A stretch of 64,000 nt of DNA from Candidatus Obscuribacteraceae bacterium (GCA_044229845.1 JBGASG010000002.1:608001-672000); one strand, 5' to 3'; counted from the stretch's first letter, positions 45,981 to 63,438 are shown. The notes: generated by a model not told the origin, from the letters alone. Program-made: numbers and translations.

Positions 45981-46660
45981 ACTCGCTGCTCCTGTGCCAC
46001 CACTTTTCCATCCCGCATGCGAATGATGCGCGATGCGTAGCCGGCAGCTTCCTCGCTATGCGTAGCCATCAATATGGTGATGCCGGAGTCGCGGTTGGTA
46101 TCGCGCAGCAAGTCGAGAATCGCCTTGCCGGTGTCCGTATCGAGGTTGCCGGTTGGTTCATCGGCTAGCAGTACCATCGGTTTGTGAATCAGCGCGCGCG
46201 CAATGGCGGTACGCTGCATTTCGCCGCCAGACAGCTGCGCCGGGAAGAAACCTGCGCGATGGCTCATGCTGACACTCTCCAGCATGGATTTGACGCGCGC
46301 CGCGATGTCAGTGTGCGACAGTCCGCGTCCGATCTCCAGCGGCAACGCCACGTTTTCTGAGACCGTCAGGGTGCTGAGCAGGTTGAAGAATTGGAAGACG
46401 AAACCGATCTTGGTGCGTCGCAACTCGGTGGTTGCGGAATCATCCAGTGTGCTGACGTCTTGCCCGTTTAAGGAAACCGAGCCGGCGGACGGGCGGTCGA
46501 TGCCGGCGACCATGTTAAGCAGGGTGCTTTTGCCACAGCCGCTGGGACCCATGAGAGCCACGAATTCGGCTGCTTCAACGTCGAAGCTCACCCCGGAGAG
46601 CGCCTGCACCTGGTGCTCTCCATAACTCTTTGCGACCTCTTTGAGCTGGATGAATGTCAT
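45977..46660 (-). CDS. ABC transporter ATP-binding protein (LolD/MacB-like)
   Basis: GPSGCGKST, LSGGEMQR, LLADEPTGNLD, MATH; start MTFIQ at 46660. Confidence 0.95.
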   Translation of the reverse strand: MTFIQLKEVAKSYGEHQVQALSGVSFDVEAAEFVALMGPSGCGKSTLLNMVAGIDRPSAGSVSLNGQDVSTLDDSATTELRRTKIGFVFQFFNLLSTLTVSENVALPLEIGRGLSHTDIAARVKSMLESVSMSHRAGFFPAQLSGGEMQRTAIARALIHKPMVLLADEPTGNLDTDTGKAILDLLRDTNRDSGITILMATHSEEAAGYASRIIRMRDGKVVAQEQRV

Positions 46661-46758
46661 CAATCTGCGGCGTTTTTCGGGGGACCGGGGCGGTTGCACG
46701 ATTCATGATAAACCCAAGGAGGGAACTCTGGGTGAATCCTGCCGGGGCGGATAAAGCC

Positions 46759-47963: not shown

Positions 47964-48212
47964 ATGGTACCCCTGAGCTTAGAGCAGCTTTTGCAGTTGG
48001 CCGCGGAAAGCGAGTCCAACAATGACCCGCTCAAGACCGAGGAGTACTTCCAGGAAGCTGTTAGCGCGGCAATCAAGAACGAGGATCCTCTCCAACTCCA
48101 GCAAGCTTACCGGCAATTTGCAGCCTTCTTGCGCAGACAGAAACGCGAGGACGAAGCGATCACACTGGAGAAGATTGCAGAGGTCTGCTCGAATCGTCGC
48201 ATAGATCATTAG
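47964..48212 (+). CDS. Small helical TPR-like hypothetical protein
   Basis: 82 aa; TEEYFQEAV...AYRQFAAFLRRQKREDEA. Confidence 0.55.
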   Translation: MVPLSLEQLLQLAAESESNNDPLKTEEYFQEAVSAAIKNEDPLQLQQAYRQFAAFLRRQKREDEAITLEKIAEVCSNRRIDH

Positions 48213-48258
48213 GTTAGACGGATCGGATCGGCGTAAGTGAGCGCTTGCTTTAAGCACA

Positions 48259-49227
48259 CTAGAGGTGTGTGATGCCGCGGTCGATCAGGTTCTGAATTGC
48301 ATCCTGCCATTCAGGAAAAGTCTCGAAGCCTGGACCAGTTTCGATCAGTCCATTGGCACCGATTTGAAGCCGAAGTCCTTTAAGGAGAACTTGCTCCAAA
48401 TGCGGTGGCATGTCCGCAACTATTTCTGCGGGTCGCCGGATGTTCACAATCGGACTGAGGAAGTATTGTCCAACGTTTTCGTATCGCTTGGCCCAGGCCC
48501 GGACACTGTCCCCGGTGGCCGGCGAGCCCGCATCGTCGGGCATAAGCATCGGATGTTGTTTGCAAGCCACCTCCCACAGAATGATTCCAAACGCCAGCAA
48601 GTCATCCGGCTTCAAGAGGGGATAGTAAATTGGAGTCGTCAGTGCACAATCGAGCCCCTGTCCTTCATCGCAGTGAAGTGGTCCGAACCAGCCCGGGTCG
48701 ATGAGCCTGGGTGGCTGATCATCGACGAATATGTGCTCGGGCTTTAGGTCGCCATGATACTCACCAGCGTTTCTTGATTGATACTTGCTCAATAATCCGA
48801 AAAGCTGCACAAACGAACTTACAGGGACTCGCTCCGCTCGATTCAATAGCTCTCGAATTGTCGGCGCCTCGATAACATCCATGGGATACATGGGAAGCCC
48901 CTGTCGCACTTCATAGTGTGAAATCCACGGGTAACAGCCGTAGTAGCCGTATTGCATCGACCGATTCTGCAAAGATAGAACCAGTGCCGTGTCGGGATGG
49001 ACAGTGATTACTGCACCCTCAGTGATGGCATGAGTTCGAGTTTGAAACTGTGACTTTACTGTAGTTGTCCGATCAAGTTCCTTGGCGATTTTCACGGCTA
49101 CTCGAGTACCGTCATTTTGGTTTTCTGCCAGGAAGATCCGCGAATAGGTTCCATCGGCAATTTCTGCTTTGCAGACAAAATTGCCAACGAGCTGCAATCC
49201 GACTAGTGTTTCTGATGCTTTTAGCAT
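48259..49227 (-). CDS. Atypical protein kinase-like paralog K5
   Basis: IADGTYSRIF, VAVKIAK, HGDLKPEHI, IDPG, TTPIYYP, DLLAFGIILWE. Confidence 0.85.
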   Translation of the reverse strand: MLKASETLVGLQLVGNFVCKAEIADGTYSRIFLAENQNDGTRVAVKIAKELDRTTTVKSQFQTRTHAITEGAVITVHPDTALVLSLQNRSMQYGYYGCYPWISHYEVRQGLPMYPMDVIEAPTIRELLNRAERVPVSSFVQLFGLLSKYQSRNAGEYHGDLKPEHIFVDDQPPRLIDPGWFGPLHCDEGQGLDCALTTPIYYPLLKPDDLLAFGIILWEVACKQHPMLMPDDAGSPATGDSVRAWAKRYENVGQYFLSPIVNIRRPAEIVADMPPHLEQVLLKGLRLQIGANGLIETGPGFETFPEWQDAIQNLIDRGITHL

Positions 49228-49228
49228 G

Positions 49229-50197
49229 CTAGATGTGTGTGAGGCCGCGGTCGATTAGGTTTTGAATTGCGTCCTGCCATTCGGAGAAACTGCCGAAGCC
49301 TGGACCAGTTTCGATTAGTCCGTTGGCCCCAACCTGAAGCCGCATGCCTTTGAGGAGCGTCTGCTCCAAATGCGGTGGCATGCCTGGAATCAGTTCGGCA
49401 GGTCGTCTGATATTCACAATCGGGCTCAGGAAGTATTGCCCGACGTTTTCGTATCGCTTTGCCCAAGCTCGGACACTATCCCCGATGGCCAGCGAGCCCG
49501 CATCTTCGGGTATCAAGAACGGATGCTGTTTGCAAGCCACCTCCCACATCAGAATTCCAAGCGCTAGAGAGTCATCCGGTTTCATCAGCGGATAGTAAGC
49601 TGGTGTACTGAGTACACAGTCAAGCCCCTCTCCCTCGCGACAATTCAGAGGTCCAAACCATCCTGGATCAATGAAACGGGGCGGACCCTCCGTAACGAAT
49701 ATGTGTTCTGGCTTCAGATCGCCATGCCATCTATCGGACGCCTCGATCTGTTGCCTAGCCATCAGCTTGAACAACTTTGCAAAAAACCCGAGCGAGATCG
49801 ATTCCCCTCTATCCAAGACTTGTCGAATTGTGGGCGCTTCAAGAAAGGCTAGAGGATACATAGGAAGTCCCTGCCGCACTTCGTAGCGCTCAATCCATGG
49901 ATAGCAGCCATAGTATCCGTATTGCATCGAATGATTTTCCAACGCAAGAACCAGCGCTGTGTCCGGATGGACATCGAGTACACCACCCTCAACTACGGCG
50001 TAGGTGCGAGTTTGAGAGTGCGACCGTGCTCCAGTAGGTCCTTCAAGTTCTTTGGCGACTTTCACGGCAACCCTATCATCATCGCGCTCGTTCTCCGCCA
50101 GAAATATGCGAGAGTACATCCCGTCAGCAATTTCAGCCTTAACGACATAATTGTCGACGACTTCCAATCCGACTAGTGTCTCTGAGGCTTTTAGCAT
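49229..50197 (-). CDS. Atypical protein kinase-like paralog K4
   Basis: Start MLKASE at 50197 by paralogy; VAVKVAK, HGDLKPEHI, IDPG. Confidence 0.85.
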   Translation of the reverse strand: MLKASETLVGLEVVDNYVVKAEIADGMYSRIFLAENERDDDRVAVKVAKELEGPTGARSHSQTRTYAVVEGGVLDVHPDTALVLALENHSMQYGYYGCYPWIERYEVRQGLPMYPLAFLEAPTIRQVLDRGESISLGFFAKLFKLMARQQIEASDRWHGDLKPEHIFVTEGPPRFIDPGWFGPLNCREGEGLDCVLSTPAYYPLMKPDDSLALGILMWEVACKQHPFLIPEDAGSLAIGDSVRAWAKRYENVGQYFLSPIVNIRRPAELIPGMPPHLEQTLLKGMRLQVGANGLIETGPGFGSFSEWQDAIQNLIDRGLTHI

Positions 50198-50198
50198 G

Positions 50199-51170
50199 CT
50201 AAAGATGTGTGATGCCACGGTCGATCAAGTTCTGAATTGCGTCCTGCCATTCAGGAAAACTCTCGAAGCCTGGTCCAGTTTCAATCAGTCCATTGGCACC
50301 AATTTGAAGGCGTAGTCCTTTAAGGAGAACTTGCTCCAAATGCGGTGGCATGTCCGCAACTATTTCTGCGGGTCGCCGGATGTTCACAATCGGACTTAGG
50401 AAGTATTGCCCAACGTTCTCGTATCGCTTTGCCCAGGCTCGAACACTATCCCCAACGACCCGCGGGTCCGCATCGTCGGGCATAAGCATCGGATGCTGTT
50501 TGCAAGCCACCTCCCACATCACTATTCCGAACGCCAAGAGGTCGTCCGGCTGCAGAAGCGGGTAGTAGATCGGAGTCGTAACGACGCAATCTAGCAGGGT
50601 TCCTTCCGCACAGTTCATCGGAATGAAGCAGCCTGGATCAATCAAAGTTATGTATCGGTCCTCGACTAAGAAAATATGTTCCGGCTTTAAATCCCCATGA
50701 ACCTTGACTGGCGATCGTGTCCTCTGCTTCTCAAGTCGTTCTGCCAGGTTTGCCAAAAAGAGCAGGTCAATCCCTCGTCCTTCATTGAGGCGGCTTCGAA
50801 GAGTTGGCTCGCTGATGAACTGCATAGAATACATCGGCAATTCGTCCTCATCAGAGTACGGACCAACGTCGACGAAAGTCGGATGGTGGCTATATGCAAT
50901 CGCACGCTGTTGCTCGCGGAGAATTTCGGATGTACTCGGATTGACCGGAAGGACAGCGCCTTCGATGATCGTGTAGCAGCGGGTTTGAAAGGGCGAGTAC
51001 ACAGGATTCTCATACTGAGCTTCTTTGGCCACTTTAATGACTTGTCTGTCAGTTTCATCGGAGTGCAATTCTGTGAGGTATAGACGCGAATAAGTTCCAT
51101 CAGCGATGACGCTTTTGACGACATAGCTGCCAGCACGTAAACCGATCAGTGTCTCTGAATCTTTGAGCAT
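50199..51170 (-). CDS. Atypical protein kinase-like paralog K3
   Basis: VIKVAK, HGDLKPEHI, IDPG, TTPIYYP. Confidence 0.85.
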   Translation of the reverse strand: MLKDSETLIGLRAGSYVVKSVIADGTYSRLYLTELHSDETDRQVIKVAKEAQYENPVYSPFQTRCYTIIEGAVLPVNPSTSEILREQQRAIAYSHHPTFVDVGPYSDEDELPMYSMQFISEPTLRSRLNEGRGIDLLFLANLAERLEKQRTRSPVKVHGDLKPEHIFLVEDRYITLIDPGCFIPMNCAEGTLLDCVVTTPIYYPLLQPDDLLAFGIVMWEVACKQHPMLMPDDADPRVVGDSVRAWAKRYENVGQYFLSPIVNIRRPAEIVADMPPHLEQVLLKGLRLQIGANGLIETGPGFESFPEWQDAIQNLIDRGITHL

Positions 51171-51172
51171 AT

Positions 51173-52141
51173 CTATATGTGTGTGATGCCGCGGTCGATC
51201 AGGTTCTTAAGGGCATCTTGCCATTCGAGAAAACCATTGAAGCCCGGTCCAGATTCGATAAGCCCGTTCGATCCGATCTGAAGTCGAAGTCCTGTGAGAA
51301 TCACTTGCTCCAAATATGGTGGCATATCAGGCACCAGTTCGGCGGGTCGTCTTATGTTCCGAAGCGGGCTGAGAAAGTACTGCCCAACGTTTTCGTATTG
51401 CTTTGCCCAGGCATGAACGCTGTCGCCAACGATTCGGGAGTCGCTGTTGTCCGGCATCAACAGCGGGTGTTGCTTGCAGGCGATCTCCCAAAGCATAATC
51501 CCAAATGCTAACGAGTCATCTGGCTTCATGAGCGGGTAATAGATGGCTGTCGTGACAGCGCAATCGAGCTCGCGGCCTTCCTCGCAATTCAATGGATCGA
51601 ATCGTCCCGGAGAAATGAATGCCGAATAGTTGTCCTCCACTGCAAAAATGTGTTCGGGCTTCAGATCGCCGTGGTGGCGAACAATCGACATTCTCTGCTT
51701 TTCGAGATTCTTGCAGACATGGCTGAGCAGACTCATACTGATCGGAATTCCATCATCAAGTAGAGTTCGTAGGGTCGGTACCTTCATGAACTCCATGTTG
51801 TACATTGGAAACCCATGCCTTAATGAGTAGTCGCCAACCGATACGTAGCAGACGGTCGAACTATATCCAATGGCGTACTGCTGTTCTCTGACAACCTCCA
51901 GCGTGCTCGGGTGGACCTCCGTGACGCCGCCTTCGAAAACACTGTAGCACTGTGTTGCAAATGGAGACACGGGCTCTTGCGTACGGTCCATTTCTTTGGC
52001 AACTTTGATGGCTACCAAGTCCTGAGTGATTTGATTTTCGGTCAAGTAAATGCGTGAAAAGGTTCCGTCGGCGATCAATTTTATGACGACATAGTTGCCG
52101 ACAACCTTCAGTCCTATCAGTGATTCCGATGCTTTAAGCAT
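51173..52141 (-). CDS. Atypical kinase-like paralog K2 (predicted pseudokinase)
   Basis: VAIKVAK and HGDLKPEHI, but ISPG at the DFG position. Confidence 0.85.
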   Translation of the reverse strand: MLKASESLIGLKVVGNYVVIKLIADGTFSRIYLTENQITQDLVAIKVAKEMDRTQEPVSPFATQCYSVFEGGVTEVHPSTLEVVREQQYAIGYSSTVCYVSVGDYSLRHGFPMYNMEFMKVPTLRTLLDDGIPISMSLLSHVCKNLEKQRMSIVRHHGDLKPEHIFAVEDNYSAFISPGRFDPLNCEEGRELDCAVTTAIYYPLMKPDDSLAFGIMLWEIACKQHPLLMPDNSDSRIVGDSVHAWAKQYENVGQYFLSPLRNIRRPAELVPDMPPYLEQVILTGLRLQIGSNGLIESGPGFNGFLEWQDALKNLIDRGITHI

Positions 52142-52142
52142 G

Positions 52143-53108
52143 CTAAAGATGTGTAATGCCGCGGTCGATCAGGTTTTGAAGTGCGTCCCGCCATTCGGAG
52201 AAACTCTCGAAGCCTGGACCAGTTTCGATTAGGCCGTTGACACCAACTTGAAGCCGCATTCCTTTGAGAAGCACTTGCTCCAAATGCGGTGGCATACCCG
52301 GCACTAGTTCCGCGGGTCGCCTTATGTTCCGAAGAGGGCTGAGAAAATACTGCCCAACGTTTTCGTATCGCTGTGCCCAAGCTCGCACACTGTCCCCAAC
52401 GACCGACGAGCCCGCATCGTGAGGCATCAACAGGGGATGTTGTTTGCAAGCTATCTCCCAGAGCATAATTCCAAATGCTAACGAGTCATCCGGCTTCATC
52501 AAAGGGTAATAGATGGCTGTCGTGACAGCGCAATCGAGTTCGCGCCCTTCCTCGCAATTCAATGGATCGAATCGCCCAGGAGAAATGAATGCCGAATAGT
52601 TGTCCTCCACGAAAATATGCTCAGGCTTGAGATCGCCGTGGTATTGAACAATCGATACCCCTATTTTTTCGAGTTTCTTGCATATGTAACTGAGTAGAGA
52701 GACGCTGATTGAACTGCCCTCAATCAGCAGTGTCCGAAGAGTCGGCAAGGTTATGAACTCCATATGGTACATTGGAAATCCATGTCTCTCCTCGTAATGC
52801 CCAATCGATATGTAACAATCACTTGGACTGTATCCGATAGCACTCTGCTGTTCCCGCACAACTTCCAGCGTACTCGGGTGAACCTCCACGACGCTGCCTT
52901 CGACGACGTTATAGCATCGCGTTGCAAATGGAGATGTAGGTTCATGTGTGCGGTTCATTTCTTTGGCAACCTTGATGGCTACCAAGTCCTGAGTTTCTTC
53001 ATCTTCCGTCAGATAGATACGCGAAAACGTTCCGTCGGCGATCAATTTCGTGACCACATAATTGCCGACAAACTTGAATCCAATCAGTGTTTCCGATTCT
53101 TTAAGCAA
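52143..53108 (-). CDS. Atypical kinase-like paralog K1 (predicted pseudokinase)
   Basis: TTG start at 53108 ((M)LKESETLIG, matching the paralog N-termini); VAIKVAK, HGDLKPEHI, ISPG. Confidence 0.85.
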   Translation of the reverse strand: MLKESETLIGFKFVGNYVVTKLIADGTFSRIYLTEDEETQDLVAIKVAKEMNRTHEPTSPFATRCYNVVEGSVVEVHPSTLEVVREQQSAIGYSPSDCYISIGHYEERHGFPMYHMEFITLPTLRTLLIEGSSISVSLLSYICKKLEKIGVSIVQYHGDLKPEHIFVEDNYSAFISPGRFDPLNCEEGRELDCAVTTAIYYPLMKPDDSLAFGIMLWEIACKQHPLLMPHDAGSSVVGDSVRAWAQRYENVGQYFLSPLRNIRRPAELVPGMPPHLEQVLLKGMRLQVGVNGLIETGPGFESFSEWRDALQNLIDRGITHL

Positions 53109-53115
53109 GTGGCAC

Positions 53116-56100
53116 CTACTCCAGTCTTCCATCACCGGACACTCGATCTCTCGCTTCAAATCCTTGCTTCCTAGATCTGTGCATCGCAGCTGTCCAATCC
53201 ATTAACACTACTCTTCCTTGAGCATCGCGTCCAAACTGAGTATATTTCATGTCTGCAACTTCGATTCCATCTTTAGCCATTGTTCGGACAAGCTCGTCAA
53301 CGTCCCTCACATCCTGCAGATTTCTCGGGTTGCAGGTTTTGCAAGGCTCTTGCACATATATGAAGCTCTTGGTCGCAGCGATCTCCACTGGCGTAATCTC
53401 CGTTATGGCCCGAGCTTCCCAATAGTTGACTCCAGTCCCAGTCTTTTGATCAAAGTAAGCAAATTCCCTATCCGGCTCCGTCAACTTCAAGAAACCGCCA
53501 TGTTCCAACACTGTACCGTTGTAGACCGACCCGGGCTTCAGGTTCACACAAATAGATTCTCCTCCCAAAAGGATATCGCCTTCCGTTACCTGAAGATTTA
53601 GATATTCAACCTCTTTTGCCAGAGCCCACAGTCTCTTTCGATGAACACCCCTAACGTCTTCCTGCAAACCCGGAATGATTTCTGGCCGCGCCAGTGCTTC
53701 TCTGAGCCAAAGTGAGAGATTCTTCGGTTTTCCATACACAACCTGCGAGCCGATCTCACCGCGGGACTGGAGGAGTTCCTCAAGTCGAGAAGAGAGCCTT
53801 GGGAAACTGGCTGCTCCGTCCGCAGCTTTTTCAAGTGCACTTTCATTGATATCGATCAGGCGGCTATCATCGACGATGCACCATCGATCCCCAATTTTGC
53901 CAAACTCGACCAAGCCTCGATTTTTGCGGAGTTCGAGGTTGTTTTGTTGAGCGAATTCCGTCAGCATATCTATCACGCCACGAGGTGGTGCGCCAGCTTT
54001 CAAATCGACGAACTCTTGGACGTAAACTCGGGCTCGATAGCCGCCTCCTAAATCAACTAACTTAGGCGCCGACAATTGATGCGGTAGATAAGGTAGAGCC
54101 GGAATCGCCTGAAAAGTTGACTCATTGCTGACTTCAATTTTCAGTGTTGACTTGTTCGCGAAGGTCTGTCCATCAACTCGCGTTCCAACAGGTAGATCTA
54201 CCAGAATTGCTCCATTGGAGGCGTGAATATCGGAGCCTCTTACCTTCAAATCGCATTGAGAGAATACTCTGCTGAGCTCGAGAAGATGCCTATCCTCTGG
54301 CAGATGTTGCCACTCGTCCCGACCAAGAAAACTCTCCCTCCCTGCAGACAAATGCAGCAACCAACTCGCAAGTTCTTTTTGTGACTTGCCATCTGGATAT
54401 CGCTCGACAAGGTTCATCTCGGTAAGGAATTTTCGGAGAAGCTCGGAGGGACCTCTCAGCAGATCGCTGAGTTGTTCCACGCCGTACTCCCGAGTGCTCA
54501 ATTTGGCAATAGCCTCAGCTGATATCAGGAACCGCCAATCACAGTCTCGACTTCTCGCTGGAAGTTCCATCACCGAAAATTGGGGTGGTGGTCGCAGTGG
54601 CTCGGGATGTGCTTCGGGCGTTTTGATTCTTTCGACTTTTTCCGCCGGTTGTTCCTGCTGGTTGGAGGAGACACGGTCATGTTCCGGCTTAACAGCAGAT
54701 GCTGGCAGCGCAGGTTTCTCCGCAGTAGAGCGTGGTGGCGCAACCTTCTCCGACACAACCGGCTCAGGTGGAGTCTCGATCTTCACTGGCTCCCGACGCC
54801 CGTGCACCAAGTCATCAAGGTCGTTCACGAACGCGGCGTGATTTCTGACTTTGCCATCAGCTAATTGCTGCATATGAAAGTTGAAGTCTTTGACGACCGC
54901 CTCGTATTCCTTCCAGTTCTTGGTCTTCGCGGCGTTATCCGTGACCTTTGCTGCCAGCCCTTCGAGTCTCTCAACTTGCTGTGGTGTCAGCCCCAGCTCG
55001 GCGCGCACCGAACCGACTCGTCTTGCTTGCGCAAGCAGGCGAACATGGTCTGTAAACTCTATATATGAAGTCGCGTTCTTATCCAGTCTGGCGGCAGCAA
55101 GTTCCGGCAAGTTCCGCAGCAGCTGCTCCGGGCTGACGCGCATGACGACCGCGTCCTTCTTGAAGAGCACCAACTCACCGGAATGCTGATCGCGCGAGCG
55201 AATCTGCCAGCCACTATCAATGGTGCCATCCGGCTTGCGCAGGTGCACGCTCTCGCCGACCTTCAATTGTAATCCGGGATTAGCAGCCAGCAAATCCTTC
55301 TCATTGATGGTCATGGCGCCATCGTGCATGATGGTGACTTTGCCATCCTTGCCGACGGTCTTCACGACAGTCCAACCCGACTCGCCTTCCAGCGCTACGT
55401 TTGCGCCCAGCTCCAGCTTTGCAGGCGACACACCAAACCTGGACTCCGCCGGCATCTGGGACGCTGCCTTATATCTGTCGTGACGCGCCGAGTAGAAGTC
55501 TCCGTGCGTGCCTTGACGGGGATCGTAAATGCGGTCGCCCGACTGCACCCACATGTGGTTGACGGTATTGCTGCCGTCGGCACCATTCCCGGTGACCAGC
55601 CTGAAGTGCGCCTGCGGCAGCAGTTCGTCGCCAAGGAACTTCAGCAAAACAGCTTGCTGTGTGCACGAGCCGGTTCCGCGTTCGATGAACTCACCAAGAT
55701 TGACGCGCTTGCCGCCATTCGCCTTGATGAATTGCATGTAGTTGGCGTCCGCGATGGACTGGACTTTGTCGCCCGGAACCGCGGTTTGCATGAACTTCGA
55801 CTCGACGAATTGAGTCAATCTGGCTTGCTGCTGTTCCGCAGTGAGGTTGTGGTATCTGCCCATGTAGGCGCGTGCTTCATCAAGGGTTTTCTGCAGCACC
55901 TTGTCGTTAGGCAGGTCTACTACCGTCGCGGCAAATGGCGACGAACTGGAACCATCCGCGCTTACATACCTGCCTTTTCCAGCGAGGGTGAATCCCGGCT
56001 GCAGCGGCTCGCCGATTTCGCCCCTGGTTTGCAGCTTGTTGGACTGCGCCCGCGCCTCCGGCATGATCGGCGCCGCATCAGCAGCGACAGGTGAGCCCTT

Positions 56101-59100
56101 GAATGATGAGAGATCGAGTTGGTGCCCTCCTTCCTTCAAGCGGGGACGCAGGTCTACCTTGTCGTTCGGACCAAGAACATAAGGACGATCTGCTACCCAC
56201 TCCTTGCCATTAGCAAATTGGATGACGGTTCCCTTACCTACAATCAACTCTCCGTGAGAGTCTCTGGCGAGCAAGACGTGAGGCGGTTCTATGTGCCCGA
56301 AGAGTTTGCTGGCCAATGCGCTCGTCACGCCGAAGACCTTGTACATCACCGCGCCTTGCACGGCTGACTGCGGCAACGAACTCAACAGGTCATCCGAACT
56401 GACCAATCCGGCCGCTTCCTGCACGGATTCGCCGGCGACATTGGAGAGCGCGGCGCCGGAGGCGTTTCTCAACAGCTGTTCTGCCTCCAGCCTGCTGACT
56501 GCGCCTTGCTTTATATTGGCTTGCAGTTTCTCTAAGATAGCTTTCTCAAGCACAGGATCAACGCCACCATCAACAGTGACCTGCTTGACCAGTTTGTCGA
56601 TGGCATCCTTCGTATGCTTGCCGCCTGCGACAGCCTGTACATCGGTCAGATCCTGAAGTCCCCTGGAGATGATTTTCTCCGCGTCAGGTCTCAGTGCGCT
56701 AACGCCCTTCTGGGTAACGGCTTCCAGCGCGGCTCGCTCTGCAACCTTCTCGCTGATGCGAAACGCTCCGGTCAAGCCGAAGTGTTCCGGTCCCACCACA
56801 GCGAGCGGTCCGACGAGCGCACCTTCTACTCCATACTTGACCAGACCTTCGCGATCAAGTTTGGCGGACTTACCCTCGTACAGCGCGTGCACACCAATAC
56901 TGGTGGCAGCGCCACCGGCGCTGCTCGTTACGAGGAAGCCGATGGTCACCTCCGGCACCAGCAAAGTTGCAGCCATCGTGGCCAGCGTGACGCTGCTATC
57001 TACAAGAGCCTTGGCGGCACCACTCTTGGAGTTGATGTAGTCTTTCTCAGCCTGATAGTACTTGTTGAGCGCTTCATGAAACTCCTGGCGCTGCTTCTCC
57101 GTAACATTCGACTTGCCGTATTTGGCGAGAACACGATCGGCTTCGTCGAGTTTCTCATCGGCAGCGATTTGCGACCGATCCCAGATGCGTTCGTGAACAC
57201 CATCTGCCAGCGAACCGCTCTTATCCGCAACGTGGCGAGCGTCGATCAATTCTTGTTGCGGTGTGACGCCAACGTTAGACAGCAGATTGCGGAACGCGAT
57301 TTGATCCGTCGGTGGCATCTTGTCCAACACGTCCTTGCCCATGTCACGATGTCCATACTTGTTGAAATATGCGTGACTGGCGTCGCGGATCTGGGTTGGA
57401 GTCAAGGTGGACAGATATTCGCGCAGCCCATCCTGACTGTCGCCGGCGCCGACCGCGAAAGCGCGCAAGCGATCTTCCGGGTGCATCGTCTCCAATGACT
57501 TTTCGGGAGGACTCTGCTTCATCATCCGCAGAAGAAACTCTCGTTTCTCGCCCGTACCCAGTAGCTTGTCTTGAACTTCGATGTCTTTCGGGTCAAGCGG
57601 ATGCGGATCGAGCAGGCGTTCTCGGTCTTGGGCTGAGGCTCCCAAAATGTCCTTCATGACACGAGAGTTATCCGGCAGGAGCGTCTCCGAAATGCGGATA
57701 GGTAATCGACCAGTCTGCATGAATGAGTCAAGCAATGTCTGGTGACTTTCCTCCGGGAAGCCTGCGCCAAATGAAACACCATGCATTCGCGATTCCAGAA
57801 CATTTTTCAATTCGGTGTTAAACCTGGCAATTGACTCGGCGTCTTTTCGGGCGGCCGCGTCTTTCTCAGTTGCGGCAGGTTTTTCGGCTACGGTAGGTTT
57901 GGCACCGCGAAAGCGTGAGGGATCCTCATCAAATGCTTTTTCGATATTGGCAAATCCAACCAGACCCTTCTCCCCGTGGAGTTGATCCAATAACACCCTG
58001 TCAAAGGAATTGACCGGCGGCTTGCCGTCCCTGATGTTGCGAAGAACATCTCTGGCAAGTTCTTGTTCTAACCCGGGCTGCAGGTGCTGAGACACCAGGT
58101 TATCCACCGTTGTCCTAAACTTAACGTCCTTCCGATAGTCATCTTGCTCCGACGGTGACATGTGGGCAAGTGCCTCGACCTTTGCAGCCGCCTTGCCATG
58201 ACTGTTGAACACTGAGGCGAACGCGTGATCAAGCAGATTCTCTTCGTTGCGTTTGAAGACGTCGGCGACTTTAACTTCCGTCTTGCGCCCCAGGAGCGCA
58301 TTCTCCCATGCATCAAGCTGAGCCTTGTCGTTAAAACCTGAGGCTTCGTTGAGAGCTTCATGGATATCTTTGTAGTAGCGGCTGATTCGCTGCTCGTAAG
58401 GCTCTTTAGGACCAATACCGCCGGTGGTGAATTCGTGATGACCTTCCTGGAACAGCTTTCTCTCTTCAGGCTCGACATGCGCGATCGCATCTTCGATGAG
58501 CGCCTTGTTAGTGCGAAAGATGCGTCCATTACCTTCGATGCGCGAAGCCAGACTCAGGTGCCCGAACTGTGCATAATCCTGCGCGGTGGAAAGTTCGAGC
58601 GGATCGGTGAACACCTTTTGCAGGCGCTCCATCCCTGCGGGAGTACTGAATTCCTTGCGAGCCTCCGGATTTAGTTGCATCGCCTCCATGAAGATGTCCA
58701 GGCGATGATGTCGCAACCCGATTTCGGCGAGTTGCTTGGCGAAGGTAGGAGGATTGCCTTCCAATTTGTCTTTGCCGTTGAGGAGCACATGGATCGCTTC
58801 CTTAGTGGCAGTCGACAGATGGGGATTATCAAATTTCAGATTTAGTTCGGCAATCTGTTTGGAGTCCAGCTTCTGCAGCGTATGCAGAATAGACTTCTCG
58901 GCGGTTGCGTGATCATGTTCGTCATTGGCGTTTTGCCAGATGTTAAAGCCATGCTGGTCGAGGCGCGAACCAGTATCAGTGACTGTGCCGAGGTTGCGCG
59001 CCAGCGCGCCGGCGAAATCCGCCACGGTGTCGTTGCGATGCAGCACGGCTTGCAATTCTGCGACAGCCTCCTGATTGCCCTTCAGCTTGTCAGCGATGTC

Positions 59101-60075
59101 CTGCGAGAGATCGTGATTGGTGCGGTGTTTGTATTCCGCCATGACCTGCTGCCGCTGCACCGGCGACAGTGTTTGCAGTATGTTGAGCATCGAATTGACA
59201 TTCGGCTCCTCAGCGTTGAGGTGCCAGATATTGTGTTCGTTCAGTGCCGCAGTCACTGCATCGGTGCGGGCCGCCACTTCTTCAGGAAACAGCAGCGTCT
59301 TGTCTTGGTGCACAGGCGTGCTGTCCCACCGCGGAGGGGCCGGGACTGCATCGCGATGCTGCGTTACGTCATGTGCTACCGGAGGATGTGGAACCGCGTC
59401 ATGTGGAACAGTCGGGACTGGAGACGCATCATGCGGGCGAGTTGGATGTGGGGACCCGCCATCATGCGGCCCGTGTTGTGGTGCAGCATCCTTGTGAGTT
59501 GTCTGCGCGTTCGGATTGATCAGCTTATCGACCTCACCGGTCACGGCTTGCTGCGCCGCGGTGAGAAACGACCCTGCCTTCTTCAACATGTATTCGATTG
59601 AGTAGTTCGCCTTGATCTCTTCTTCGTGCGCAGACGAAGTAGCGGTCTTCAGGAGTTTTTGCAAACCATCCATGAACGACGCCCGCGGAACGTGCCGTTC
59701 TCCCTTGGATGAGTACTCTTTGCCTTCTTTTTTGTCTTCGATGACAAATTCGGAGACCGCAGCGGGTCCTGTCTTCTGCCCATCGTGGTGGGCATTGACA
59801 CGATTCATCAGCGCTTCCAGTGCCTGATCGCTTTCGCTGGGTGGATGAGACTTCGCCAGATGCCCATCTCGTGACCGCTCTACATGGCCGCCGCCCTGCT
59901 TGGGCAATGTCCTATCGTGCCCGCCGGAGAACGTGGAAAACTTCTTCTCGTACTTGGCGGCCTGTGGCTCATTAGTCACATTTTCGGCAGCAGACTTGCT
60001 CGACGCAGCGTTACTCTGCCCGTCGTCCTTGACGTGATCCGGCTTCTTGTCGGGTTGTTTCTCGCCGCGGGTCAT
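53116..60075 (-). CDS. Giant multidomain protein: annexin-like repeats, hydrophobic helices, EDR1/transglutaminase-like domain, two C-terminal kinase-like domains (candidate polymorphic toxin)
   Basis: 2319 aa. Annexin-like ILQTLSPVQRQQVMAEYKHRTNHDLSQDI and YLSTLTPTQIRDASHAYFNKYG. GSCTQQAVLLK...NHMWV...IYDP triad. C-terminal GGES...FLKL...YVQE...DMKYTQFG...LMDW. Confidence 0.8.
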   Translation of the reverse strand: MTRGEKQPDKKPDHVKDDGQSNAASSKSAAENVTNEPQAAKYEKKFSTFSGGHDRTLPKQGGGHVERSRDGHLAKSHPPSESDQALEALMNRVNAHHDGQKTGPAAVSEFVIEDKKEGKEYSSKGERHVPRASFMDGLQKLLKTATSSAHEEEIKANYSIEYMLKKAGSFLTAAQQAVTGEVDKLINPNAQTTHKDAAPQHGPHDGGSPHPTRPHDASPVPTVPHDAVPHPPVAHDVTQHRDAVPAPPRWDSTPVHQDKTLLFPEEVAARTDAVTAALNEHNIWHLNAEEPNVNSMLNILQTLSPVQRQQVMAEYKHRTNHDLSQDIADKLKGNQEAVAELQAVLHRNDTVADFAGALARNLGTVTDTGSRLDQHGFNIWQNANDEHDHATAEKSILHTLQKLDSKQIAELNLKFDNPHLSTATKEAIHVLLNGKDKLEGNPPTFAKQLAEIGLRHHRLDIFMEAMQLNPEARKEFSTPAGMERLQKVFTDPLELSTAQDYAQFGHLSLASRIEGNGRIFRTNKALIEDAIAHVEPEERKLFQEGHHEFTTGGIGPKEPYEQRISRYYKDIHEALNEASGFNDKAQLDAWENALLGRKTEVKVADVFKRNEENLLDHAFASVFNSHGKAAAKVEALAHMSPSEQDDYRKDVKFRTTVDNLVSQHLQPGLEQELARDVLRNIRDGKPPVNSFDRVLLDQLHGEKGLVGFANIEKAFDEDPSRFRGAKPTVAEKPAATEKDAAARKDAESIARFNTELKNVLESRMHGVSFGAGFPEESHQTLLDSFMQTGRLPIRISETLLPDNSRVMKDILGASAQDRERLLDPHPLDPKDIEVQDKLLGTGEKREFLLRMMKQSPPEKSLETMHPEDRLRAFAVGAGDSQDGLREYLSTLTPTQIRDASHAYFNKYGHRDMGKDVLDKMPPTDQIAFRNLLSNVGVTPQQELIDARHVADKSGSLADGVHERIWDRSQIAADEKLDEADRVLAKYGKSNVTEKQRQEFHEALNKYYQAEKDYINSKSGAAKALVDSSVTLATMAATLLVPEVTIGFLVTSSAGGAATSIGVHALYEGKSAKLDREGLVKYGVEGALVGPLAVVGPEHFGLTGAFRISEKVAERAALEAVTQKGVSALRPDAEKIISRGLQDLTDVQAVAGGKHTKDAIDKLVKQVTVDGGVDPVLEKAILEKLQANIKQGAVSRLEAEQLLRNASGAALSNVAGESVQEAAGLVSSDDLLSSLPQSAVQGAVMYKVFGVTSALASKLFGHIEPPHVLLARDSHGELIVGKGTVIQFANGKEWVADRPYVLGPNDKVDLRPRLKEGGHQLDLSSFKGSPVAADAAPIMPEARAQSNKLQTRGEIGEPLQPGFTLAGKGRYVSADGSSSSPFAATVVDLPNDKVLQKTLDEARAYMGRYHNLTAEQQQARLTQFVESKFMQTAVPGDKVQSIADANYMQFIKANGGKRVNLGEFIERGTGSCTQQAVLLKFLGDELLPQAHFRLVTGNGADGSNTVNHMWVQSGDRIYDPRQGTHGDFYSARHDRYKAASQMPAESRFGVSPAKLELGANVALEGESGWTVVKTVGKDGKVTIMHDGAMTINEKDLLAANPGLQLKVGESVHLRKPDGTIDSGWQIRSRDQHSGELVLFKKDAVVMRVSPEQLLRNLPELAAARLDKNATSYIEFTDHVRLLAQARRVGSVRAELGLTPQQVERLEGLAAKVTDNAAKTKNWKEYEAVVKDFNFHMQQLADGKVRNHAAFVNDLDDLVHGRREPVKIETPPEPVVSEKVAPPRSTAEKPALPASAVKPEHDRVSSNQQEQPAEKVERIKTPEAHPEPLRPPPQFSVMELPARSRDCDWRFLISAEAIAKLSTREYGVEQLSDLLRGPSELLRKFLTEMNLVERYPDGKSQKELASWLLHLSAGRESFLGRDEWQHLPEDRHLLELSRVFSQCDLKVRGSDIHASNGAILVDLPVGTRVDGQTFANKSTLKIEVSNESTFQAIPALPYLPHQLSAPKLVDLGGGYRARVYVQEFVDLKAGAPPRGVIDMLTEFAQQNNLELRKNRGLVEFGKIGDRWCIVDDSRLIDINESALEKAADGAASFPRLSSRLEELLQSRGEIGSQVVYGKPKNLSLWLREALARPEIIPGLQEDVRGVHRKRLWALAKEVEYLNLQVTEGDILLGGESICVNLKPGSVYNGTVLEHGGFLKLTEPDREFAYFDQKTGTGVNYWEARAITEITPVEIAATKSFIYVQEPCKTCNPRNLQDVRDVDELVRTMAKDGIEVADMKYTQFGRDAQGRVVLMDWTAAMHRSRKQGFEARDRVSGDGRLE

Positions 60076-60178: not shown

Positions 60179-60601
60179 CTACGCGCGGACTGCGGACACG
60201 TGCCCGTCTTTCGCGTAGCGCAAAAGTCTCCGGTCACGAGTGACCACGACCGCATTTTCCATCCTGGCCGTGGCAACAATCAGACGATCAGCCGGATCCT
60301 GGTGCAAATCACCAGGTAAATAACAACTGTCTAGAGCAATTTCAGCATTGAGCGGCACCAAGCTAATGCCCGGCTGATTCAAAGCCTCGCGGACCCAATC
60401 GCGCGGATCCTTTTGCAGCACAAGGCGTCCCTTCAACTCAAGCGTCGCTACTTCCCAAACACAAATCGCAGGAATTAGAACCGCTCCCATCCTCGCAGCA
60501 TCGTCGATTAGAACGCGGATGCGGGGCGACAGCTGCAAGTTGCCGTCCACTAGCCAGATCCAAACATGTGTGTCGAGAACAACCCGCCGGCGCTCAGCCA
60601 T
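60179..60601 (-). CDS. vapC: Type II TA VapC (PIN) toxin
   Basis: VLDTHVWIW, ICVWEVA, HQDPADRLIVATA, VTRDRRL. Confidence 0.93.
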   Translation of the reverse strand: MAERRRVVLDTHVWIWLVDGNLQLSPRIRVLIDDAARMGAVLIPAICVWEVATLELKGRLVLQKDPRDWVREALNQPGISLVPLNAEIALDSCYLPGDLHQDPADRLIVATARMENAVVVTRDRRLLRYAKDGHVSAVRA

Positions 60602-60893: not shown

Positions 60894-61712
60894 TTACTGC
60901 GGACCACCCGGTCCACCGGGACCTCCCCCAAATCCGCCGCCTCCGCCGCCGAATCCGCCGCCACCAGGTCCGCCGCCTTGCATGCGCTGTTTGCGCTGCT
61001 CTCTGAATTGTTCTAGCTTCGCCTTCTCAGCGTCGTCCAGCACACCGTCGCCGTTGGCGTCGAATTTCTGCATCATGCGCTGATACATCGGTCCGCGCTG
61101 TCCACCACCACCGCCGCCGCCACCGTTCCAATTCACCACTCCGTTGCCACCACCGGCGCCACTAAAGCCACCTGGTCCGCCTTGCCCACCAAAGCCACCG
61201 GGACCGCCCTGTCCGCCGAAGCCGGGACTGCGGAAACCGGGACCGCCCTGTCCGGGTCCACCGCCGCCACGGAAACCGCCACCGCCCTGACCACTAAATC
61301 CCCCACCGGGACCTCCCTGACTGCCAGGTCCACCGAAGCCGCCGGGCGGTCCTCCGCCCTCGGCCGCTCGTTTCTGCAACCATTCTTGCAGCTTGCCTTT
61401 CTCCTGGTCACTGAGAACGCCATCGCCGTCGGCATCAAATTTTTGCTTCAGACGTTCGCGCATGCCGCCGCCCTGCCCACCGCCTCCACCGAACTGTCCC
61501 CCGCCGAACTGCCCGCCACCAGGGCCGCCGCCGTTTCCGAATCTCGGTCCGCCATCCTCACTCATCGGAGGCGGTGATTGCCCGGGAGGTCCGGGCGGAA
61601 TTCCAATCGACGATTCGATACCAGATGCGGTACCGCTCCCCGGATCAGCCTTGACCGCAGGGGCTGCGGACAACAAGACAGTAACTGCCAAAAGGAAAAG
61701 CCTGCTTCTCAT
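60894..61712 (-). CDS. Secreted Gly-rich protein with two EF-hand-like motifs
   Basis: Signal peptide from MRSRLF (61712); FDADGDGVLSDQE and FDANGDGVLDDAE; GGPGG low-complexity segments. Confidence 0.8.
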   Translation of the reverse strand: MRSRLFLLAVTVLLSAAPAVKADPGSGTASGIESSIGIPPGPPGQSPPPMSEDGGPRFGNGGGPGGGQFGGGQFGGGGGQGGGMRERLKQKFDADGDGVLSDQEKGKLQEWLQKRAAEGGGPPGGFGGPGSQGGPGGGFSGQGGGGFRGGGGPGQGGPGFRSPGFGGQGGPGGFGGQGGPGGFSGAGGGNGVVNWNGGGGGGGGQRGPMYQRMMQKFDANGDGVLDDAEKAKLEQFREQRKQRMQGGGPGGGGFGGGGGGFGGGPGGPGGPQ

Positions 61713-61731
61713 GGTAATGTCTCCAACGCAA

Positions 61732-63438
61732 TTAGTACTGCATAAACTCGGGACTGCCAATCAACGCGGCAGTCTTTTGATAGTCGGGCACGGCAGCGAT
61801 AGCCTGCTGCGTCTTGAGTGATAATCTGCCACCATTTACGGTGCTTTGAATCCATCGATAATCCAGCGGCTGGGCCCGCCGTTGCGCCTGCCCCAGCTTG
61901 GTCGCGAACTCCATTCGCTTCATCAGTCCATCGGGATTGAGCCATGTCTCCCGCGTGTTTTTGTAGCCGTCCGGTGTCTGGCACTGATAGAGCGGCTGCC
62001 CCTGCTGATTCAAGAAGAGTTGAATCTTCAGAGCAGAACCTGGGTCCGAGAGGTGCATATCCGTGGCGCGCAACGCGGAAATCGTATATCTATATGGATT
62101 CTTGAACTTGCAGTTGCGATACTGGGTATCCCAAAATTCAGTGCTCGAAAATAGTGTGACCAGCACCGACTTTATGTTTCCCCGCGTCTGCATGAACTTG
62201 GTTGAAAGTTTGTCAACGAGACTTTTAGGTGGTTCGTCCGCTACAAAATATTGGGCCAGTTGATAACTGACGTGCCGCGCGGTCGATGGATGGCGCGCCA
62301 GCATATCCAGCACTTGCTCGATTTCATCGCGTCCTGTGCCACGAATTGTTTGCCCCAACACGACCTTATCGCCAAAGTCGTGACGGCGCTGATCGAAGAA
62401 TGCACCATAACCACCGTCAGTTATCAGGTTTTTCCGCATTGCAGGCGGCATGCCCCACCCGGTGAGAACCCGTGCCAGCTCTTGCACGTCTTTCTGTGTG
62501 TATCCACCATCGACGCCCATGGTGTGCAGTTCCAGCAGTTCGCGCGCATAGTTTTCGTTGATACCATTCTTCGGATCGTTAGGATTGAGTGATTTAAATC
62601 CCGCCTTACTGTTTTGCGCGTTATCGAGATAGAACATCATGGCGGGATGGTGCATGGTGGCACCGAGCAGATCTCTGAAGTTGCCCATTAAGTGGGGGCG
62701 GATTGCTTGCTCTTCGTAGGCACCAACCAGTACTCTATCCATGCCTTTCGACATCGCAACATTGAAATGATTGAACCAGAAGTCAGTCATAACTTCCTGC
62801 AACTGTCGGGGACTTTCCACCGCGCGTACAAGTCGCGTCTTAATCACGCCTTGCTGAAAGCCATCTCTAAATGGACTGCCACCACCTTGTTGTCTCTGTG
62901 GCAATTTATTACCGCCAGGACCGAATTCTTGAATCTGCAACTGCGGCAACGGCGCCATCGCGGTCTGGTCCATCTGTCCCGATTGCTGCCCCTGCTGCTG
63001 TCCCGATTGCTGCCCCTGCTGCTGTCCCGATTGCTGCCCCTGCTGCTGTCCCGGTCGCTGCACCGCCTGCTGTCGCGGCTGCTGCCCGCCGTCCTCACCT
63101 TTCTGTCGCGCCTGCAATTTGCGAATCTGGTCAAAAAAGACAAGCATCAAATCCGCTGACGGCTGACTAATCTGTGGAGTCTTCTGAACCTGATCGATCA
63201 CAATCGTCGACTCAGGGATGCTCGAAGGCTGCAGTTGCATCTCGATGTATTTCTGAATGCCAATCTGCCTGACCTTTTGTATGTCACCAGGTCTGGCGCC
63301 CATCGTCAGCCTATTAAGTAGATGGACGATCTGTTCATCAGTCGCGGCCGCCGGCTGTTCGCTGGCACCCTGTTTCGTGCTCGCCTGGACCGGCGCCAGC
63401 ACCAATAGCCAGGCTAGAAGAAGGCTAGTAAATCTCAT
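61732..63438 (-). CDS. DUF1800 family exported protein
   Basis: HLLNRLTMG, QLQEVMTDFWFNHFNV, YLDN, NENYARELLELHTMGVDGGYTQKDV. Confidence 0.92.
   Translation of the reverse strand: MRFTSLLLAWLLVLAPVQASTKQGASEQPAAATDEQIVHLLNRLTMGARPGDIQKVRQIGIQKYIEMQLQPSSIPESTIVIDQVQKTPQISQPSADLMLVFFDQIRKLQARQKGEDGGQQPRQQAVQRPGQQQGQQSGQQQGQQSGQQQGQQSGQMDQTAMAPLPQLQIQEFGPGGNKLPQRQQGGGSPFRDGFQQGVIKTRLVRAVESPRQLQEVMTDFWFNHFNVAMSKGMDRVLVGAYEEQAIRPHLMGNFRDLLGATMHHPAMMFYLDNAQNSKAGFKSLNPNDPKNGINENYARELLELHTMGVDGGYTQKDVQELARVLTGWGMPPAMRKNLITDGGYGAFFDQRRHDFGDKVVLGQTIRGTGRDEIEQVLDMLARHPSTARHVSYQLAQYFVADEPPKSLVDKLSTKFMQTRGNIKSVLVTLFSSTEFWDTQYRNCKFKNPYRYTISALRATDMHLSDPGSALKIQLFLNQQGQPLYQCQTPDGYKNTRETWLNPDGLMKRMEFATKLGQAQRRAQPLDYRWIQSTVNGGRLSLKTQQAIAAVPDYQKTAALIGSPEFMQY
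62974..63053 (-). repeat. 24-nt coding tandem repeat (QQGQQSGQ x3) in the DUF1800 gene
   Basis: ctgtcccgattgctgcccctgctg at 62974, 62998 and 63022, plus a partial copy. Confidence 0.85.

Follow-up and report, generated by a model that had tools for sequence, protein, structure and literature searches.

A putative polymorphic effector with annexin repeats and an exchangeable tandem kinase-like tip, followed by an array of five kinase paralogs, in Candidatus Obscuribacteraceae

A stretch of 64,000 nucleotides from Candidatus Obscuribacteraceae bacterium (GCA_044229845.1, JBGASG010000002.1:608001-672000; hereafter the window) contains, at positions 48,259 to 60,075, six genes that all lie on the minus strand. 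The first and by far the largest of them encodes a protein that we call the giant; the other five, K1 to K5, are tandem paralogs from one family of predicted protein kinases (the K family). In the best reading, the giant is a polymorphic effector that targets membranes, in which a recombining warhead of two tandem kinase folds sits behind a conserved peptidase, and K1-K5 are an amplified and diversified branch of a kinase family that partners giants across the bacterial family. An earlier note, made from the sequence alone, had proposed a kinase-fold toxin neutralised by kinase-fold immunity proteins. The host genome (G000; 5.16 Mb in 22 contigs, 88% complete, with the window on contig C8) was compared with that of a sister species (G072) and with other genomes of the same order; the coordinates of all parts of the locus are collected in Table 1.

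Results and discussion

An exchangeable tip with a kinase-like fold

Full-length homologs of the giant are P0018, from a metagenome-assembled genome of the sister species (85% identity), and P0019 (37%). The giant of G072 is identical to P0018, and its similarity to the giant of the window is distributed very unevenly. Up to residue 1800, 17 of 18 blocks of 100 residues are 93-100% identical, and the remaining one has 72% identity and a 23-residue gap; past residue 1800, identity is 41-63% in five full blocks. At the DNA level, a blastn match of 95-96% ends at position 54587 of the window (residue ~1830), and the rest of the gene, which we call the tip, has no blastn match. The giants differ by 0.010 nonsynonymous (dN) and 0.136 synonymous (dS) substitutions per site before the tip, vs dN of 0.50 and saturated dS within it, and because of this disparity the two tips are old alleles swapped by recombination and not products of fast drift. 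The drop in identity and the sharp DNA breakpoint bear out the suggestion of the earlier note that the giant has a variable C-terminal tip of the kind known in polymorphic toxins.

The tip has no Pfam or NCBIfam kinase family, the only match being SAICAR_synt at E 0.02; this match, as well as TCAD9, Pox_T4_N and similar ones (E>0.01), was treated as noise. The nearest named clusters in Atlas, Kinase-PolyVal, OspG_kinase, T7 kinase and APH at 0.92, are leads only. Structural evidence is more definite. An AlphaFold2 model of residues 1830-2318, built from an alignment of seven rows, has a predicted local distance difference test score (pLDDT) of 84.0 and a predicted template modelling score (pTM) of 0.73; it replaced a model built from the single sequence, which had a pLDDT of 37.6. 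A Foldseek comparison of the model with PDB gave 49 matches at E<=0.001, and among the matches listed all are kinases, with Rio2 (1zao, E 2.2e-5) as the best one; they include the pseudokinase-kinase tandems of JAK/TYK2 and a kinase-domain duplication of EGFR over ~450 columns. Re-alignment of model residues 324-489 with VIA produced Z scores of up to 8.6 (to MK2 and to PKR), and root mean square deviations of 3.4-4.8 across 115-135 residues. In a VIA search of 48,161 chains, which does not depend on Foldseek, all 50 of the 50 entries listed are protein-kinase-like; Z scores are 8.3 for aminoglycoside phosphotransferase, 7.7 for BRAF, 6.7 for Rio1, 6.6 for Bud32 and 6.2 for OspG. The first domain of the tip is barely covered, by one VIA row (FAK kinase, model residues 4-240, Z 6.2). 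All these Z scores are middling, and the argument is carried by the unanimity of the matches together with the sequence motifs.

In the second domain, five elements are invariant in all seven aligned sequences: GGESI, the Lys of LKxT, YxQ, an Asp followed five residues on by QFG, and the Asp in LxDW/Y. They probably correspond to, respectively, the Gly-rich loop, the β3 Lys, the hinge, the catalytic loop, and the metal-binding Asp. The first domain retains LK and YVQE in the alignment and is probably a pseudokinase, because the Asp of the catalytic loop is absent. The model and its matches to kinase structures confirm the statement of the earlier note that the giant ends in kinase-like domains; the prediction for the tip is a pair of minimal, RIO-like kinase folds, of which the first is degenerate and the second has all the catalytic-type residues.

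Architecture and modularity of the giant

Upstream of the tip, the giant is a string of modules (Table 1). Its N-terminal 260 residues have no signal peptide, as judged by eye and by hydrophobicity, and match no Pfam family. Residues 107-205 are 44% identical to a 300-residue protein of the same genome (L212, contig C19, 7444-8346, minus strand), which has no Pfam family and has glycosyltransferases as neighbours. The repeats that follow are recognized by Pfam Annexin (PF00191) with 36.8 bits (E 4e-9), above the cut-off of 25, and with 40.7 bits (E 2.5e-10), in two stretches, when the segment is searched alone; there are also weak matches to annexins from PDB at giant residues 293-337 and 865-932. 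A hydrophobic segment similar to that in the middle of the protein is found by Kyte-Doolittle analysis in the giants of relatives.

The next recognizable module is the EDR1-type, transglutaminase-like peptidase domain. The giant itself matches PF14381 at residues ~1377-1511 with 18.1 bits (E 0.0025), under the cut-off of 27; homologous regions of relatives exceed this cut-off (40 bits in L014, 28.9 bits in L172), and the region of the giant aligns to both. Each of the 19 homologs aligned over the region has a Cys in GxCxQQ, a His in NHxW and an Asp in DPR, and these invariant residues probably make up an intact catalytic triad. The middle region, between this domain and the linker, has no Pfam family. 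The earlier note had seen in the locus the general plan of polymorphic toxins, and this part of it is upheld: a long N-terminus, a hydrophobic segment, and a Cys-His-Asp peptidase precede the C-terminal tip.

These modules are reshuffled among homologs. A HMMER search with the tip against 1.84 billion representative proteins gave four matches, P0018, P0021, P0022, and P0023; of these, P0021 and P0022 align to the giant only from residues ~1313/1330 to 2300, i.e., through the EDR1-type domain, the middle region and the tip, and have different N-termini. Conversely, P0020 and the giant of locus L015 share the annexin and hydrophobic module with the giant of the window, but end in RHS repeats, so that the C-termini of homologs that share N-terminal modules do vary, as had been expected; the identity between P0020 and our giant is 22% across residues 259-1153 (E 2e-44). 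Giants of other relatives end in FHA-EDR1 or EDR1-middle parts. The giant belongs to a modular family spread over Obscuribacteraceae, whose members start with a disordered N-terminus, continue with annexin-like repeats of membrane-binding type and a hydrophobic segment, and finish in enzymatic parts that vary. Matches to modules of the giant are found in 90 of the 107 genomes of the order, usually in several open reading frames (ORFs) of 1100-3900 amino acids. The tip itself is found in three of the 107: G000, G072, and G066. In the last of these, a frameshift in the Pro-rich linker puts giant and tip in different frames (L119, contig C85, 8747-8849), which may be an assembly error or may be a genuine split that sets the tip free. 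A scan of metagenome contigs with the tip alignment produced 76 pattern matches, none of which was confirmed. Apparent tip matches in L156 and L165-L172 proved to be artefacts caused by EDR1 and middle-region columns of the hidden Markov model (HMM), and are gone when the model is built on query columns.

Two side observations concern the same modules. EDR1-type regions also occur in open frames of 17,447 amino acids (G054, contig C138, two regions) and 9,897 amino acids (G005, contig C1). The giant also varies between strains: two independent sludge runs have 21-28 differences at 56128-56740 (residues ~1112-1316), and contigs of the same two runs diverge at 57442/57474, within the conserved part of the giant.

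The five downstream kinases

K1-K5 are 56-80% identical to each other at the protein level, far above chance. A profile of 53 members of the K family matches Stk1, StkP and PknB in PDB at E values from 7e-20 to 1e-14, and by this similarity K1-K5 are classified as Hanks-type kinases. Taken one by one, the five proteins stay under the Pfam cut-off (E 3e-4 to 4e-2); a sixth paralog from the same genome, described below, passes it with 41 bits. PADLOC has no match for the giant, and its matches for K1-K5 (PD-T4-6 and mad6 kinase models, E 1e-9 to 1e-2, partial domain) represent generic kinase similarity.

The β3 Lys is found in 70 of the 70 K-family sequences that cover this position, and most family members have full catalytic motifs. 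All five proteins of the window have the β3 Lys and the HGD Asp, and in all five the Asn of the catalytic loop is replaced by His. The Asp of the DFG motif is changed to Ser in K1 and K2, and K3, K4 and K5 retain DPG. Across the family, loss of catalytic residues is confined to copies that are linked to giants or lie on short contigs, and is seen in none of 16 solo copies.

The sister species has three K genes in a different order: its tip is followed by a K5-like gene (Ka), a K1-like gene (Kb), and a K3-like gene. K5 is 95% identical to Ka, which stands directly after the other tip allele, and K1 is 98% identical to Kb; K3 is 85% identical in protein and 97% in DNA to the third gene, which is truncated by a deletion in the N-lobe. 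K1, K3 and K5 have, overall, orthologs of 94-98% in a genome with the other tip allele. K2 (79% to K1, best match in G072 Kb at 80%) and K4 (72% to K5, best match Ka at 73%) have no orthologs of their own there. The dN/dS ratio of ortholog pairs is 0.17-0.22, and dS between paralogs ranges from ~0.9 to saturated; the array is therefore old, with every member maintained. Divergence between paralogs is concentrated at residues ~31-210. In the last third of the genes, DNA identity is 75-94% in most pairs of paralogs, and 64-92% in pairs with K2, which is consistent with gene conversion.

In the phylogenetic tree, the eight K genes from G000 and G072 group in a single clade with support of 100; its sister group consists of the two K genes of G066 and of two K genes that follow EDR1-ending giants. 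By this topology, the duplication of K in G066 is independent of that in the genus of the window. In G066 (L119, 1699-5493, minus strand), both K genes are followed by two canonical Ser/Thr kinases of ~625 amino acids, 53% identical to each other.

The K family and its association with giants and FHA domains

The K family has members in 74 of the 107 genomes of the order at E<=1e-20. We examined the best K locus in 60 further genomes, including 16.5 kb upstream and 2 kb downstream of K where the contig allowed. Eight of these loci have a giant bearing at least one of the annexin, hydrophobic or EDR1 modules on the same strand, with K no more than 230 nt downstream. In another 14, a module-bearing giant is 1.6-3.9 kb upstream of K, and in three it is 9-10.4 kb upstream, with biotin-synthesis genes in between in the one that was examined. 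Four loci have an EDR1-bearing giant near K on the opposite strand, and one has K just upstream of an annexin-bearing gene. Other ORFs of at least 1000 amino acids without matches to the modules account for five loci (three of these ORFs are large kinases). K is without a giant within 16.5 kb in 15 loci, and in ten the contig extends for less than 10 kb upstream of K and shows no giant. The K family is strongly enriched beside giants of this family, whatever their C-terminus. The HMM cleaned of the EDR1 and middle-region columns detects no tip in the 60 other K loci.

Phosphothreonine is the ligand of FHA domains, which are partners of Hanks-type kinases. In K-adjacent giants, Pfam FHA is detected upstream of the EDR1-type domain in L159 (5e-18) and L164 (1e-6), and, in two stretches each, in L167 (1e-25) and L169 (3e-15). 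A local FHA HMM adds L168 and L171, so that six of the eight K-adjacent giants have FHA; the same HMM also finds it in L182, in four opposite-strand giants, and in one ORF downstream of K in L165. The presence of this domain in K-adjacent giants points to K acting on, or together with, the C-terminal region of the giant by phosphorylation. In the giant of the window, a BLAST match to FHA at residues ~1287-1310 (E 0.012) has no HMM support, and we do not claim a remnant of the domain there.

In loci of RHS type (L193-L202 type and L015), the order of genes is a kinase of ~688 amino acids, a giant with LysM, annexin and RHS domains, a gene of ~171 amino acids, a gene of 365 amino acids or a TPR gene, and K; the K proteins of these loci are ~400 amino acids long and have an N-terminal extension. 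The sixth K paralog in the genome of the window is a solo gene, 33% identical, found among genes for ferritin, a hydrolase and a phosphatase. A dual-specificity phosphatase near it (L008, contig C14, 13280-14131, minus strand) also matches the Pfam family 'Polymorphic toxin system, DSP-PTPase phosphatase' at E 1.2e-11.

Gene arrangement, neighbourhood and occurrence

The gene arrangement given in the earlier note, with a 2319-residue protein followed after a 7-nt gap by five paralogs of ~322 residues at a spacing of 1-2 nt, is confirmed on the minus strand. The junction between the giant and K1 reads TAGgtgccacTTG, with no other small ORF in between. The junctions K1-K2, K3-K4 and K4-K5 have the sequence TAGcATG, and K2-K3 has TAGatATG; start-to-start distances within K1-K5 are 967-973 bp. 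The start of K4 was placed at the ATG that aligns with MLKASETL of the paralogs, and there is an alternative GTG upstream, at 50218. The array ends with a further K start, a remnant of 15 nt (GTG CTT AAA GCA AGC; GTGCTTAAAGCAAGC), from which the ORF 47979..48257 opens with MLKAS; the remnant suggests duplication unit by unit. A scan of the locus for promoters and terminators found nothing above shuffles, so the claim that the genes form one coupled operon rests on their spacing.

Table 1. Parts of the locus and their coordinates in the window
Feature	Position	Strand	Size or residues	Remarks
Giant gene	53116..60075	-	2319 amino acids	ATG start, TAG stop
N-terminal part	59299..60075	-	~259 residues	Charged, low-complexity
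Annexin-like repeats	57046..59298	-	~260-1010	Pfam Annexin
Hydrophobic segment	56917..57009	-	~1023-1053	Kyte-Doolittle; one or two membrane helices
EDR1/CTR1/ARMC3-type (transglutaminase-like) peptidase domain	55486..56058	-	~1340-1530	PF14381 and homologs
Middle region	54796..55458	-	~1540-1760	β-rich, then helical; conserved with EDR1 in P0021, P0022 and several relatives
Pro/Glu/Lys-rich linker	54589..54798	-		Terminates at the recombination breakpoint
Tip domain 1	53854..54588	-	1830-2074	Helical part and kinase-like fold with degenerate catalytic motifs
Tip domain 2	53119..53853	-	2075-2319	Kinase-like fold with invariant motifs
K1	52143..53108	-	321 amino acids	TTG start, 7 nt past the TAG of the giant
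K2	51173..52141	-	322 amino acids	
K3	50199..51170	-	323 amino acids	
K4	49229..50197	-	322 amino acids	
K5	48259..49227	-	322 amino acids	
Remnant of a further K start	48243..48257	-	15 nt	1 nt past the stop of K5, array end

Directly upstream of the giant is a PIN-domain gene (PF01850, E 1.8e-15; 60179-60601, minus strand), likely a small gene of toxin-antitoxin type, preceded by genes for an EF-hand protein (60894-61760, minus strand) and a DUF1800 protein (61732-63438, minus strand). On the other side, two small convergent ORFs downstream of K5 have no Pfam family. Further away are a TPR-caspase protein (41900-43303, minus strand; Peptidase_C14 at E 8e-24, PADLOC 'caspase' at E 4.6e-14) and, upstream of its gene, a MacB-type ABC transporter (43404-46699), both syntenic in the sister species.

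The locus is found in near-identical form in sludge and bioreactor metagenomes from 10 studies, and two DNA runs span all 30 bins of it. RNA-library contigs of at least 99% identity, from two studies, fall on K1/K2, on the tip and on some parts of the giant, with DNA carry-over possible; K3-K5 have no RNA-library cover, which is uninformative on transcription. A contig from run X15 joins 51608 in K2 to 52579 in K1 and omits 970 bp, i.e., one repeat unit; since 32 nt are common to both sides of the join, a collapse during assembly and a real fusion or copy-number variant are equally likely.

The role of the kinases and the location of the giant

Since K is found downstream of giants whatever their C-terminus, and these giants often have FHA domains, K is most likely a phospho-regulatory partner of the giant. 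We give a phospho-regulatory or neutralising role of K in the producer cell a little less than an even chance. In such a scheme, the annexin and hydrophobic part would carry the giant to a membrane or across it, with the peptidase and the kinase folds serving as the active warhead. K, in the cytoplasm, would bind the enzymatic C-terminal region of the giant or phosphorylate it, thereby restraining or licensing this region. In the lineage of the window, K became amplified into an old, diversified array, with partial loss of catalytic residues, and this array may have gained an allele-matched neutralising role alongside the polymorphic tip.

Several observations weigh against this reading. Fifteen of the 60 loci have K without a giant within 16.5 kb, and a clade of solo K genes (L176, L161, L188, L180) shares a conserved operon with genes for a TrkA-type potassium channel and DUF1292; K is thus not exclusive to giants, and the giant-linked copies may come from a gene with the housekeeping role that this operon suggests. 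RHS-type loci place two other genes between the giant and K. The giant of the window has no FHA by Pfam (E<=1) or by the local HMM of 17 sequences, nor do the other tip-bearing proteins, and the FHA argument thus applies to the window by homology of the K-giant pairing. Each genome has 144-325 kinase candidates at first look, which weakens all arguments from kinase neighbourhood, and the related genomes are non-independent samples, in which 2 kb downstream of each K was covered. Export, too, is assumed, because a hydrophobicity scan found no signal peptide in the giant, and Phage_sheath_1, VipB and VirB4, with which a sheath of type VI or contractile injection systems and VirB4 were sought, were not found in the genome, which is 88% complete; ShlB was not found either, in a search that was positive in no control genome, so that its absence is not established. 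The RHS repeats and LysM domains of paralogous giants argue for exported proteins.

According to the reading closest to the earlier note, the tip is a toxin aimed at competitors and K1-K5 are a kinase-fold immunity repertoire, one per tip allele, acting by binding or phosphorylation, with K1 cognate to its own tip and the others as orphan immunities. The tip is polymorphic through recombination, K1 occupies the immunity position 7 nt past it, and the tip-adjacent K switches with the tip allele, being K1 in G000 and the K5-like Ka in G072, with both types kept in both genomes at 94-98%. The dS of 0.18 for K5/Ka, compared with 0.04 for K1/Kb, is as expected if Ka came with the other tip, and the divergence of paralogs at residues 31-210 (dN ~0.52) is near that of the tip (0.50). 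Tandem K arrays are found only at the three tip loci, with five genes in G000, three in G072 and two in G066, and at E<1e-10 the 60 other loci each have a single K-family gene, though some have more distant kinases adjoining K; loss of the DFG Asp in K1 and K2 is one more point in favour. The restriction of arrays, the joint change of K and tip, the degeneracy and the dS gap fit an immunity repertoire, and they fit an arsenal of cofactors equally well. This kinase family does not always follow kinase tips: K is present in 74 of 107 genomes vs three for the tip, and stands behind FHA-EDR1, EDR1-middle or RHS giants. Most K copies are catalytically complete by motif, and at ~320 amino acids and 30-40% identity across genera they are unlike typical immunity proteins, which are small and evolve fast; there are no orphan tip fragments inside the array, and no secretion route was found in the genome, of which 88% was available to the search. 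Tip-matched immunity, as it was stated, is not supported by a family that is not bound to the tip and whose orthologs are shared across tip alleles, and we consider it rather unlikely. What does stand is that the tip and the genes after it are both of kinase fold. The stronger idea, that toxin and immunity are both kinase folds, with a pseudokinase-kinase warhead checked by an expandable kinase/pseudokinase repertoire, one per tip allele, derived from a kinase that regulated giants via phosphothreonine and FHA, is unlikely. A predicted complex of the tip with K1 scored 0.00; this prediction was run without controls and weighs neither for nor against binding.

The same array could also be an arsenal of kinases and pseudokinases delivered together with the giant, as effectors or cofactors of the tip kinases, against a eukaryotic or bacterial target. 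In some parasites, arrays of pseudokinases assist an active kinase, and the ROP5 pseudokinase is among the fold matches of the tip (Foldseek rank 40, a match of fold only). The array does mix intact and degenerate kinases, which are old paralogs, each under purifying selection, and annexin repeats and eukaryote-like EF-hand, LRR and TPR-caspase proteins are found in and around the loci. On the other hand, K proteins read by eye have no signal sequence or delivery motif in common with the giant, the solo clade sits in housekeeping-looking operons, and FHA domains inside giants indicate a partner that acts on the giant itself; co-delivery is quite improbable. Nor does the giant have to leave the cell: it could be an intracellular scaffold anchored in the membrane, where annexin senses changes in membrane or calcium, and the peptidase and kinases work together in signalling or defence. 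Such a scaffold would suit FHA domains and kinases, which require ATP and are usually active in the cytoplasm; it also agrees with the missing signal peptide and secretion system and with the TPR-caspase and EF-hand proteins nearby. A survey of bacterial annexins (Kodavali et al. 2014, PMC3894181) predicts a cytosolic location, with a membrane anchor, for one annexin-toxin protein. Yet RHS and LysM in paralogous giants are typical of exported proteins, the swapping of C-terminal alleles is a signature of exported polymorphic toxins, and PADLOC, which is blank for the giant, gives K no more than generic kinase similarity, all of which makes the scaffold highly doubtful.

Comparison with known systems

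In Rhs and CDI-type systems, C-termini are displaced and orphan immunity genes form arrays. The abrupt switch from ~99% to ~49% identity in the giant, and the tandem array of paralogs whose order differs between close relatives, are reminiscent of these systems; unlike in them, there are no orphan tip fragments here, and the kinases of the array are conserved, mostly catalytically intact, and also occur without the tip. Pairs of a Ser/Thr kinase and an FHA partner are known, for example, from the control of type VI secretion through the threonine phosphorylation pathway. In relatives, a Hanks-type K likewise adjoins the gene of an FHA-bearing giant; the differences are that FHA is found inside annexin/peptidase giants, that the giant of the window is FHA-free and ends in kinases, and that no phosphatase partner was seen among the ORFs examined.

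In plant EDR1/CTR1 proteins, the N-terminus is an EDR1-type domain and a kinase domain comes after it. The order of EDR1-type domain and kinase fold is the same in the giant, and in relatives a kinase gene is recurrent beside EDR1-type domains; the bacterial domain, however, has the Cys-His-Asp triad, the fused kinases are RIO-like, and the adjacent ones are Hanks-type, not Raf-like. With OspG-type effectors and RIO/Bud32 kinases, the tip shares a small kinase fold without the lower C-lobe, but has no family match at the sequence level, and this fold is doubled in tandem at the C-terminus of a 2319-residue protein. In the type VII toxin-antitoxin system TakA-TglT, a kinase antitoxin neutralises the toxin by phosphorylation. 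This is a precedent for a kinase that neutralises a toxic enzyme encoded next to it, even though the kinase family and the toxin are different, and there is no secreted giant.

The closest resemblance in the N-terminal modules is to polymorphic toxins with annexin domains. In the portion of Zhang et al. 2012 (PMC3482391) available to us, annexin is an accessory domain of toxins in polymorphic-toxin-related systems, and one kinase toxin domain, Tox-Peptide Kinase, is listed without an immunity protein; this portion does not describe a giant with a kinase array. The available portion of Kodavali et al. 2014 (PMC3894181) reports fusions of bacterial annexins with toxin domains and with membrane segments, and its main text, to the same extent, does not contain the word 'kinase'. 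The shared features are annexin before a C-terminal enzymatic domain, a peptidase ahead of that domain, recombining C-termini, RHS in paralogs, and membrane segments by the annexin repeats. The differences are many annexin repeats here vs one there, no PVC metallopeptidase or recognizable secretion domain here, a warhead of tandem RIO-like kinases instead of a kinase of lantibiotic-synthetase type, and full-size Hanks-type kinases downstream. A full-text literature search found no published account of annexin giants in Obscuribacter or of this arrangement of genes.

Conclusions

If the proposed reading is true, polymorphic effector systems would gain a new warhead, a tandem pair of minimal kinases, and a new type of partner gene, which codes for full-size kinases and pseudokinases. 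The locus is a natural test of whether a secreted enzyme can have a kinase as its neutralising or licensing partner. In a bacterium, it also links an EDR1-type domain with kinase folds, a pairing seen otherwise in the signalling proteins of plants. And in this family of non-photosynthetic relatives of cyanobacteria, common in wastewater sludge, several giant effectors with annexin would be tied to signalling by Ser/Thr kinases and FHA domains.

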